Source: a virus
Direction: 5' to 3' (one strand)
Virus record (IMG/VR): IMGVR_UViG_3300047300_000657
Coordinates: 3,929 to 67,928 of that record
Length of the DNA stretch: 64,000 nucleotides
How positions within the stretch are numbered: position 1 is the stretch's first letter; each line of letters opens with the position of its first letter. Below the pieces are notes generated by a model. That model was not told the origin of the DNA, ran no database searches, and saw only the letters and a list, made by a program, of their open reading frames with translations. Positions 3,888 through 25,622 of the stretch are shown here, one piece after another. The translations under genes and the position numbers were made by a program.

Positions 3888-4033
3888 TAGTCTGGATCTA
3901 CCATTCCTTCCGCTGCCTCATGAGCTGCAGACTCTTCTGCTCTCTCATTCATACCATTAGAAACATCCATCATGTTAATTGATGACATCCCCATCTGGCT
4001 TCCAACGCTTTCGCAACCGCATTCAACGCACAT
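3887..4033 (-). CDS. 48-aa MCxxCGC micropeptide (not in ORF track)
   Basis: MCVECGCESVGSQMGMSSINMMDVSNGMNERAEESAAHEAAEGMVDPD; TAATG coupling to the next gene. Confidence 0.7.
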   Translation of the reverse strand: MCVECGCESVGSQMGMSSINMMDVSNGMNERAEESAAHEAAEGMVDPD

Positions 4034-24318: not shown

Positions 24319-24320
24319 AT

Positions 24321-24359
24321 AAACAAAAATCGGGCTAAATTTTTCAATTTGCCCGATTT
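24321..24359 (-). terminator. intrinsic terminator (attenuator) immediately 5' of tRNA-Arg(ACG)
   Basis: AAATCGGGC-loop-GCCCGATTT followed by TTGTTT. Confidence 0.75.
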
Positions 24360-24382
24360 GGTTTTATATATATAAAACTATT

Positions 24383-24475
24383 TCAGACAACACTTCCAAT
24401 AAACCAGACTGTTGACGGTAGCACAAAATGCCCACGTTGAGATGTGGTCTGATATGATCGAAGTGTTGCTTTCAT
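24383..24475 (-). CDS. 30-aa leaderless leader peptide of the distal tRNA block (not in ORF track)
   Basis: MKATLRSYQTTSQRGHFVLPSTVWFIGSVV; ATG 7 nt after the -10 box. Confidence 0.65.
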   Translation of the reverse strand: MKATLRSYQTTSQRGHFVLPSTVWFIGSVV

Positions 24476-24482
24476 AGTGTAT

Positions 24483-24511
24483 ATACTACCATTTCTTTTT
24501 TATATGTGCAA
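24483..24511 (-). promoter_or_regulatory. promoter of leader peptide / distal tRNA block
   Basis: TTGCAC-17 nt-TAGTAT with extended TGG. Confidence 0.65.
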
Positions 24512-24672: not shown

Positions 24673-24673
24673 G

Positions 24674-24747
24674 CGATCCATATCGGACTTGAACCGACGG
24701 CCTCTACCGTGACAGGGTAGCGCTCTAACCAACTGAGCTAATGGACC
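24674..24747 (-). tRNA. tRNA-Asp(GTC)
   Basis: CTACC-CTGTCAC-GGTAG. Confidence 0.92.
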
Positions 24748-24927
24748 ATGTGTGAGCAATGTATTGACTAGTACATTCTCACCGACTCTTTTCTTCAACA
24801 CCTGCGAGTAACAGCAACTGTGTGTCATTGTCATACACTAAAGGCAGAGTTAATGCCGTCACCAATTCGGGGCTGGTCCTACATATCTTATTCACGATTG
24901 ATATAACCGAGTGTTAGTCACTACACT
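24748..24927 (-). ncRNA. candidate ~180-nt structured ncRNA between tRNA-Gly and tRNA-Asp
   Basis: six or more hairpins; complementary terminal loops TGACTA/TAGTCA; no credible ORF. Confidence 0.55.
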
Positions 24928-24928
24928 G

Positions 24929-24999
24929 AGCGAATAGTCAGAATCGAACTGACGCCACCTACTTGGAAGGAAGGAGCACTACCATTATGCAATATTCGC
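24929..24999 (-). tRNA. tRNA-Gly(TCC)
   Basis: CCTTC-CTTCCAA-GTAGG; T73. Confidence 0.87.
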
Positions 25000-25013
25000 A
25001 ATATTTAATTTTG

Positions 25014-25251: not shown

Positions 25252-25536
25252 CTATTCTTCTAATTCTATCAAGCCTAATTCTTTAGCTACTCTTTTACCT
25301 TCTTCGCTTAATTCCATGTGTGCTTCTAAGTTTTCATCATATTCGATATCAAGTAAACCTTTTTCAAATAAATCAACGAGTGTTGCATCTACAAAGCTTG
25401 TGTGCGCTTCCCACAACTCTGGTGCAATTTCTTGAGCAATTGGATCTATTGTAAATATAAATTCGCCACTTTCATCTACGCCAGAAACTTTAATGACACC
25501 CATGTCGATGTACATATTTAGAAGCTCGTCGTCCAT
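25252..25536 (-). CDS. acidic hypothetical protein
   Basis: 94-aa ORF with AGGAGG RBS right after a tRNA. Confidence 0.75.
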   Translation of the reverse strand: MDDELLNMYIDMGVIKVSGVDESGEFIFTIDPIAQEIAPELWEAHTSFVDATLVDLFEKGLLDIEYDENLEAHMELSEEGKRVAKELGLIELEE

Positions 25537-25548
25537 TTATTCCTCCTG

Positions 25549-25622
25549 TGCGCCAAGTAGGACTTGAACCTACGATTACCGAATTATGAGTTCGGGGCTT
25601 TAACCAACTAAGCTATTGGCGC
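25549..25622 (-). tRNA. tRNA with CAT anticodon (Ile2 or Met)
   Basis: CCGAA-CTCATAA-TTCGG. Confidence 0.87.

Follow-up and report, generated by a model that had tools for sequence, protein, structure and literature searches.

Element E and its place in the array

The window analysed here is a stretch of 64,000 nucleotides (nt), positions 3,929 to 67,928 of IMG/VR virus record IMGVR_UViG_3300047300_000657. The record is 67,928 bp long and its completeness is rated at 63%. Its terminase is 62% identical to that of Streptomyces phages of ~128 kb. On the minus strand the window carries an array of 21 tRNA genes, located with ARAGORN and Rfam, which runs from 25622 to 23268 with spacing of mostly 0–4 nt. 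One gap of this array, between tRNA-Gly(tcc) and tRNA-Asp(gtc), is filled by a segment that we term element E (Table 1). Positions within E are numbered 1–180 along the minus strand, such that the window position equals 24928 minus the E position. An initial annotation, made from the sequence of the window, had singled out this gap as 180 nt without a credible open reading frame (ORF) among closely spaced tRNAs, and had proposed that it encodes a structured multi-hairpin RNA, a unit of its own between the tRNAs and of no recognised family. The coordinates proved exact. The window copy does hold a 38-codon frame with a GTG start at 24779–24895; no frame is open across all 16 distinct copies of E described below, the longest open stretch switching frame between copies. 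We therefore rejected a small protein gene, the frame also being broken by insertions and deletions (indels) in a variant from public run X11.

Taken alone, E is indistinguishable from chance, and it exceeds chance only once homologues are added. The minimum free energy computed for its minus strand is −42.4 kcal/mol, as compared with −42.5±4.1 kcal/mol for 200 dinucleotide shuffles (z 0.03), 99 of which are as stable. The plus strand of the gap is likewise without a folding signal (z −0.47). Neither a sigma-70-like promoter nor a terminator was found on the minus strand within the gap. Rfam 15 contains no family that matches inside 24748–24927 at an E-value ≤10, only tRNAs passing in the window, which agrees with the failure of the initial annotation to recognise the RNA. 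Four other copies of E gave no Rfam match on the E strand at an E-value ≤5, and the copy at locus L224 gave one match on the opposite strand (E-value 3.5) that partly overlaps E. Among INPHARED phage records there are just two matches, both of chance quality (E-values 2 and 7), and a literature search, with supplements outside its scope, found no description of the family.

Homologues and covarying helices

Copies of E were retrieved along three routes. A 25-mer of E positions 26–50 brought five viral contigs and three metagenome contigs, and a degenerate motif from the 3′ half brought ten further loci. In addition, a scan with the core of fam1, a second inter-tRNA family described below, yielded 56 stretches, two of which also hold a copy of E (nhmmer E-values 4e-19 and 1e-18). 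A covariance model, R1, scores 17 places at 105–203 bits, the next best hit in 222 sources reaching 15 bits. These 17 places represent 16 distinct sequences of 174–181 nt each. Viral contigs gave no match to an exact H7 pattern or to a 22-mer, and metagenome contigs gave none to a 20-mer; all three patterns were taken from the 3′ half of the copy in the window, where E varies between copies. A search of 185,579 prokaryote genomes with the 3′ motif of the family gave 0 matches, and no H7-like hairpin with a TAGTCA loop lies beside a tRNA in 161 loci searched for one.

The phages that carry these arrays are uncultured lake phages whose terminases are nearest to those of Streptomyces and Gordonia phages. 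Most of the window stretch occurs nearly unchanged in 14 public DNA runs from 7 studies, one of them possibly its source. A partial variant of E emerged when contigs of four public runs were compared with the window. This second contig of run X11 covers 24781–24907 with 17–18 substitutions and 4–5 indels (+2, −1, −1, −1), leaving 107 of 129 columns identical, and the 38-codon frame is lost in it through a net indel of −1. The stem GTGT/ACAC is changed to GAGA/TCTC, and GGCA/TGCC is unchanged amid altered neighbours. H7 and tRNA-Asp are replaced by 29 other letters and a tRNA-Gly-like start; the end of the variant nonetheless re-forms a hairpin, with outer stem GTAAG/CTTAC, inner stem AGAAC/GTTCT and the loop CTAGTCA as before.

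The initial annotation had suggested that homologues be collected and tested for covariation, and its proposal of a structured RNA is borne out by the 16 distinct copies. In the model-fitted alignment of these sequences (A4), we counted 41 pairs, drawn from H1, H2, H4, H6, H7, the loop-loop contact and ACTC/GAGT. Paired cells amount to 98.8%, as against 86.0±0.8% after shuffling; 18 pairs change on both sides (shuffled 12.2±1.4), as do 86 cells (shuffled 26.9±4.3); and the covariation score is 0.424 (shuffled 0.166). None of these four values was attained in 500 shuffles. When the 3′ partners are slid by 1–3 columns, just 1–5 pairs change on both sides. Structure-blind MAFFT alignments point the same way. 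With seven rows (A3), 11 pairs change on both sides, compared with 6.8±1.5 after shuffling (2 of 500), and with all 16 rows (A5) H4 and H7 are found again by RNAalifold, which counts 11 covarying pairs. There is also a strand preference, in that a U·G pair at the base of H2 (14 of 16 copies) and a G·U pair in H7 (9 of 16) would be mismatches on the other strand. That these pairs form on the tRNA strand argues that this strand is under selection.

Helices H2, H4, H6 and H7 are thus supported by covariation, whereas the remaining stems have to be judged in other ways. All stems listed in the initial annotation are present in the sequence and most of its registers stand; H6 had to be corrected from TGC/GCA to CTGT/GCAG, and the GTGT of H5 pairs with the ACAC at 24823–24820. 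In H6, the pair 116–124 is A-U in 13 copies, G-C in two and C-G in one. The stem of H7 is highly variable in sequence. By contrast, the first 20 nt of E are almost invariant, and the sole changes in H1, a stretch that lies in no retrieval pattern, convert three pairs to G·U. Because the registers of H3 and H5 shift between copies, these hairpins were folded copy by copy with RNAfold and were not counted by column. H3 forms in 16 of 16 copies, with varying stem letters and a CGAA-type loop, and is weak in L233 and L231 (three pairs, −0.8 and −1.5 kcal/mol). Fifteen of the 16 copies can form H5 with other stem letters, and for L233 no stem is predicted. The gap is confirmed as a conserved non-coding element, and the putative seven-hairpin structure is supported by the comparison of copies.

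Table 1. Coordinates of element E, its parts and neighbours in the window, and of other inter-tRNA elements at related loci.
Feature	Position	Strand	Details
Element E (whole)	24748–24927	−	180 nt; fills the gap from tRNA-Gly to tRNA-Asp; covariance model R1, 176 bits
tRNA-Gly(tcc)	24928–24999	−	Upstream neighbour; E begins 0 nt after it
tRNA-Asp(gtc)	24673–24747	−	Downstream neighbour
H1	24910–24927	−	AGTGT/ACACT, loop AGTGACTA; extreme 5′ end; 5 pairs kept in 16/16 copies
H1 loop letters TGACTA	24915–24920	−	Exact complement of TAGTCA
H2	24882–24905	−	TATATC/GATATG, 12-nt loop; changes on both sides in 4/6 pairs
H3	24861–24877	−	ACCAG/TTGGT, loop CCCCGAA
H4	24842–24858	−	(C)GGCA/TGCC(T), 7-nt loop TTAACTC; changes on both sides in 5/5 pairs
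H5	24820–24838	−	GTGT/ACAC; the ACAC is 24823–24820
H6	24802–24814	−	CTGT/GCAG (24814–24811 with 24805–24802), invariant loop TACTC; 1/4 pairs covary
H7	24752–24782	−	11-bp terminal hairpin GTGAG-AATGTA/TACATT-G-CTCAC, loop CTAGTCAA; followed by ACAT, then tRNA-Asp; changes on both sides in 8/11 pairs
H7 loop letters TAGTCA	24765–24770	−	
fam1	L014:11546–11697; L082:1180–1352; L160:6094–6261; 55 more in L163–L217		Second uncatalogued family
Third gap element	L003:5259–5387; L014:11971–12098; L160:6337–6460		~128 nt, after tRNA-Leu(tag)
Fourth gap element	L014:12171–12330; L160:6533–6696		~160 nt, between tRNA-Trp and tRNA-Ser

As the initial annotation had noticed, the letters of the first loop are exactly complementary to those of the last, which would permit a kissing contact between H1 and H7. 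Of the 16 copies, 15 keep TGACTA unaltered, and in the remaining one (L220, A13>G) a G·U pair with T158 is still possible. TAGTCA is intact in 14 of 16, L218 carrying TTGTCA (A159>T, a mismatch) and L224 lacking the last A (A163). Changes on both sides occur in none of the 16 copies, and we regard the contact as a tentative proposal, somewhat more likely to be wrong than right. A rival partner for positions 4–13 is 108–117, a helix that RNAalifold prefers and that can pair in 98.8% of cells; all its changes are one-sided, none being matched on the other side, and part of it is fixed by a retrieval pattern. This helix clashes with the covarying H6, and L225 has a U-C mismatch there and keeps a C-G pair in H6. 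We retain it as a possible alternative fold predicted by the program. Two further long-range pairings had been suggested by the sequence. ACTC/GAGT is invariant in 16 of 16 copies, which is uninformative because both sides belong to the degenerate 3′-half retrieval pattern, and TCGG/CCGA is paired in 89.8% of cells without covariation.

The six loop letters of H7 also occur in another setting. A hairpin CTCTGTA-TAGTCA-TAGCAGAG recurs at about 20 terminase loci (for example L002, L010, L014, L051 and L056), on the opposite strand, upstream of the terminase and probably in a coding region.

A movable cassette and its possible function

E is a movable cassette inside phage tRNA arrays, with flanking tRNAs that vary from phage to phage. 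It lies on the same strand as the array tRNAs and follows the upstream tRNA with 0 nt between them in 17 of 17 places; at its other end, the next tRNA is no more than 1 nt away in 15 of 17. The upstream tRNA is Trp in six places, Asn in four, Glu and Leu(tag) in three each and Gly in one; downstream are Leu(tag) (five), Ser (three), Gly (three), Glu (two), Asp (one) and Val (one). At L225 and L228 a short ORF of ~80 codons follows E instead of a tRNA. In the 290 nt downstream of the copy at L225:2582–2760 come a TATAAT-like box, a stretch rich in purines and the ~80-codon Cys/His-rich ORF, with the next tRNA after them.

The distribution of E is patchy. Searches with nhmmer and blastn did not find it at 80 loci of terminase relatives (terminases 81–93% identical) or at 80 loci reached via the downstream gene for a 191-amino-acid protein. 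In six of six records that carry it there is a single copy per record, one of these records being a complete genome of 112,951 bp with terminal repeats. In four of five such records the terminase is just 55–56% identical to that of the window, and the copies there match that of the window over positions 1–50 with at most one letter changed. Near-identity of the 5′ 50 nt in distant phages, together with absence from near ones, indicates that E has spread patchily. The arrays themselves are highly variable among relatives. Where the 191-amino-acid protein is 98% identical (L082, L083 and L099), the array has 5 tRNAs versus 21 in the window, and homology with the nearest relatives breaks exactly at tRNA borders. 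The arrays of the window's clade have been rebuilt tRNA by tRNA.

We put at about 0.55 the probability that E is the gene for a structured noncoding RNA of ~178 nt with seven hairpins, from a family outside Rfam 15, that is expressed via the tRNA operon and released in trans-acting form. E would be transcribed within the operon and, judging by its position, may be excised by the enzymes that trim tRNAs, namely a 3′-end nuclease that acts behind the upstream tRNA, and RNase P, which acts at the downstream one. The released RNA would have its 5′ end within H1 and its 3′ end within the long hairpin H7. With a hairpin at each end, both termini would be shielded from exonucleases, and a long-lived RNA able to act in trans could result. 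The nearly invariant unpaired letters, in the loops of H1 and H7 and in GTAGG, are likely to be the working surface, serving either mutual binding as kissing loops or the binding of another molecule.

Several observations weigh against this proposal. The transcription, ends and stability of the RNA are deduced from the position of its gene, and the flush packing of E is a weak argument by itself, since such packing is general in these arrays. RNase P could not always make the 3′ end, given the ORF that takes the place of the downstream tRNA at L225 and L228. None of the 160 loci from closer relatives of the window has E, which implies that it is dispensable. As for the fold, a single sequence does no better than its shuffles; alignment A4 was fitted to the structure of the model, which favours paired cells; and the 16 sequences are related, so that the shuffle counts are not probabilities. 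Furthermore, because copies were retrieved by exact motifs, invariance is partly by construction at positions 26–50 and in GTTGCT, TACTCG and AGAGTC. The former concerns one retrieval group, and the invariance of GTTGCT..TACTCG.AGG..AGAGTC the other. Positions 1–20, comprising H1 with its loop, and the loop of H7 lie outside every successful pattern, and their conservation is therefore genuine.

That same conserved 5′ end, which no retrieval pattern touches, fits an alternative in which E acts in cis as a processing module, whether by cleaving itself as a ribozyme or by recruiting a nuclease as a structured trailer, with a cut at its own 5′ junction making the 3′ end of the upstream tRNA. The upstream junction is the sole constant of the 17 places, the downstream side being free in L225 and L228, and many unpaired letters of E are conserved. 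There is a precedent as well, in that processing of tRNA 3′ trailers is postulated for theta ribozymes in the relevant passages of PMC10879173. We nevertheless consider such a module unlikely. No Rfam ribozyme family matches E at an E-value ≤10, H1 closes after an 8-nt loop, such that the P1/P2/P3 nesting of an HDV-like ribozyme cannot be drawn from +1, and 180 nt with seven helices would be large for a self-cleaver. Moreover, the other tRNAs in the same arrays mature without one. A more specific version, improbable in our estimation, is that E is a new ribozyme for tRNA end processing, with seven helices, that cuts at its own first nucleotide while H1 is docked through a loop-loop contact with H7. 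If this were true, the job postulated for theta ribozymes would be done with an unrelated fold.

Equally improbable, in our view, is that E is first and foremost a cassette that is selfish or driven by recombination, with conserved ends that serve movement at the DNA level and an RNA fold that is secondary. Its patchiness would be accounted for, with absence from 160 close-relative loci and presence, with an identical 5′ 50 nt, in phages at 55–56% terminase identity, as would the five kinds of upstream and six kinds of downstream neighbour and the like behaviour of fam1. On the other hand, each record holds a single copy, no encoded protein, terminal repeats or target duplication was noticed at the junctions, and the compensatory changes and strand-specific G·U pairs point to selection on the RNA fold. 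The least credible alternative, to which we give hardly any weight, is that the gap is functionless spacer DNA, a decayed pair of tRNAs or a small ORF. The fold energy equal to that of shuffles, the 38-codon frame and a length close to that of two tRNAs would all be expected in one of these cases. Four helices covary, however, and every frame is interrupted in at least one of the 16 copies. We also rejected a decayed tRNA as a candidate, since ARAGORN and the Rfam tRNA model (RF00005, E-value ≤10) find no tRNA or cloverleaf in the gap.

A few features of the array and its surroundings are recorded here in their own right. Assembled contigs of RNA run X20 fall on the flanking tRNAs and none on E, which, for assembled contigs only, is no evidence either way. 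An 852-nt contig of this run contains tRNA-Gly with 0 differences to that of the window (24927–25001), followed by different sequence, and a tRNA-Met-like gene 243 nt upstream of the tRNA-Gly. In the window, a 94-codon ORF on the minus strand (25252–25536) lies between the first tRNA-Met and tRNA-Arg(tct) and has no PHROG match. Many relatives have a gap of 300–342 nt at the equivalent site, and 26–45 of 80 relatives' loci match the stretch in blastn. The other large gap of the array, 24319–24511, holds a 30-codon ORF and has a blastn match in 0 of 160 relatives' loci. Finally, RF04354 (Plastid-ycf2 5′UTR) scores up to 64 bits, against a threshold of 65.7, on the plus strand opposite tRNAs (25548–25622 and others); this model seems to recognise antisense tRNA.

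Other inter-tRNA elements and known phage RNAs

The second uncatalogued cassette, fam1, sits between a wide variety of tRNA pairs, where it fills gaps of 149–173 nt and, in one case, of 313 nt. With 58 places and 35 distinct sequences it is commoner than E. Of its 37 pairs predicted by RNAalifold, 24 change on both sides. Rfam gives no match to fam1, finding only tRNAs in three of its loci. Neither blastn nor nhmmer links fam1 to E, and the two are unrelated in sequence, yet fam1 adjoins E in L171 and L208. Two smaller families occupy further gaps (Table 1), and the ~128-nt element ends in a 12-bp hairpin with a compensatory change from A-T to G-C. Taken together with E, these families mean that the arrays carry several unrelated RNA cassettes. 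The evidence suggests that no fewer than two, and probably four, mutually unrelated families of structured RNAs of 120–180 nt sit as interchangeable cassettes in the arrays of lake phages. It also suggests that the small RNAs in the tRNA cluster of phage T4 are no oddity of that phage. E itself, with a covariation-supported fold and two near-invariant complementary loops, can be taken directly into probing, cleavage and pull-down experiments, and covariance model R1 can be used to annotate such gaps in viromes.

Large structured RNAs and ribozymes have been described near phage tRNAs, and E can be compared with both. GOLLD has reportedly been seen in Mycobacterium tRNA arrays in one study. GOLLD and ROOL are described, in the parts of PMC12286853 that introduce them, as structured RNAs that phages and prophages encode, frequently close to tRNA islands, and whose function is unknown; many GOLLD RNAs exceed 800 nt, and ROOL is termed ‘large’. 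E, at 180 nt and with no Rfam match, lies inside the array and flush with tRNAs on both sides. We rejected its membership in either family, since there is no Rfam match and its size is too small. According to the literature, conserved hairpin loops of GOLLD and ROOL form kissing loops, some of them between RNA copies. A bold reading of the complementary loops of E would be that the H1 loop of one molecule pairs with the H7 loop of another, so that dimers or chains built of RNA alone arise, resembling ROOL or GOLLD assemblies on a small scale.

The theta ribozymes, HDV-like ribozymes of gut phages, are associated with phage tRNA genes in the account given in PMC10879173, where the processing of 3′ trailers is put forward as their role. 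Like them, E lies immediately 3′ of a phage tRNA (17 of 17 places). Its predicted fold, a row of seven hairpins, differs from their nested double pseudoknot, and an HDV-like theta ribozyme was rejected by the model search, which gave no HDV-type match at an E-value ≤10, as well as by the closure of H1 after 8 nt.

By position, the closest precedent for E is the pair of species 1 and 2 RNAs of T4, encoded by rnaC and rnaD. In T4, rnaD (119 nt) starts 1 nt after tRNA-Arg, and rnaC (139 nt) starts 6 nt after rnaD. Passages on these RNAs in PMC3014915 (2010) and PMC9697503 (2022) give their roles as unknown, and the latter reports their accumulation as shown by Northern blot. E differs from rnaC and rnaD in that it moves among different tRNA neighbours, and the T4 RNAs are known to accumulate whereas E is known here from its sequence. 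When R1 was run with filters off on the T4 tRNA region, it gave no hit on rnaC/rnaD (1909–2172 of L162), its best hit in a 5-kb T4 stretch (4.9 bits) lying elsewhere. There is no likeness of sequence or fold, and E is not homologous to them. What they have in common is that each is a small noncoding RNA gene of similar size that abuts a tRNA within a phage tRNA cluster and shares the strand of the tRNAs. E is a new family of a kind already known, that of the RNAs of phage tRNA clusters.
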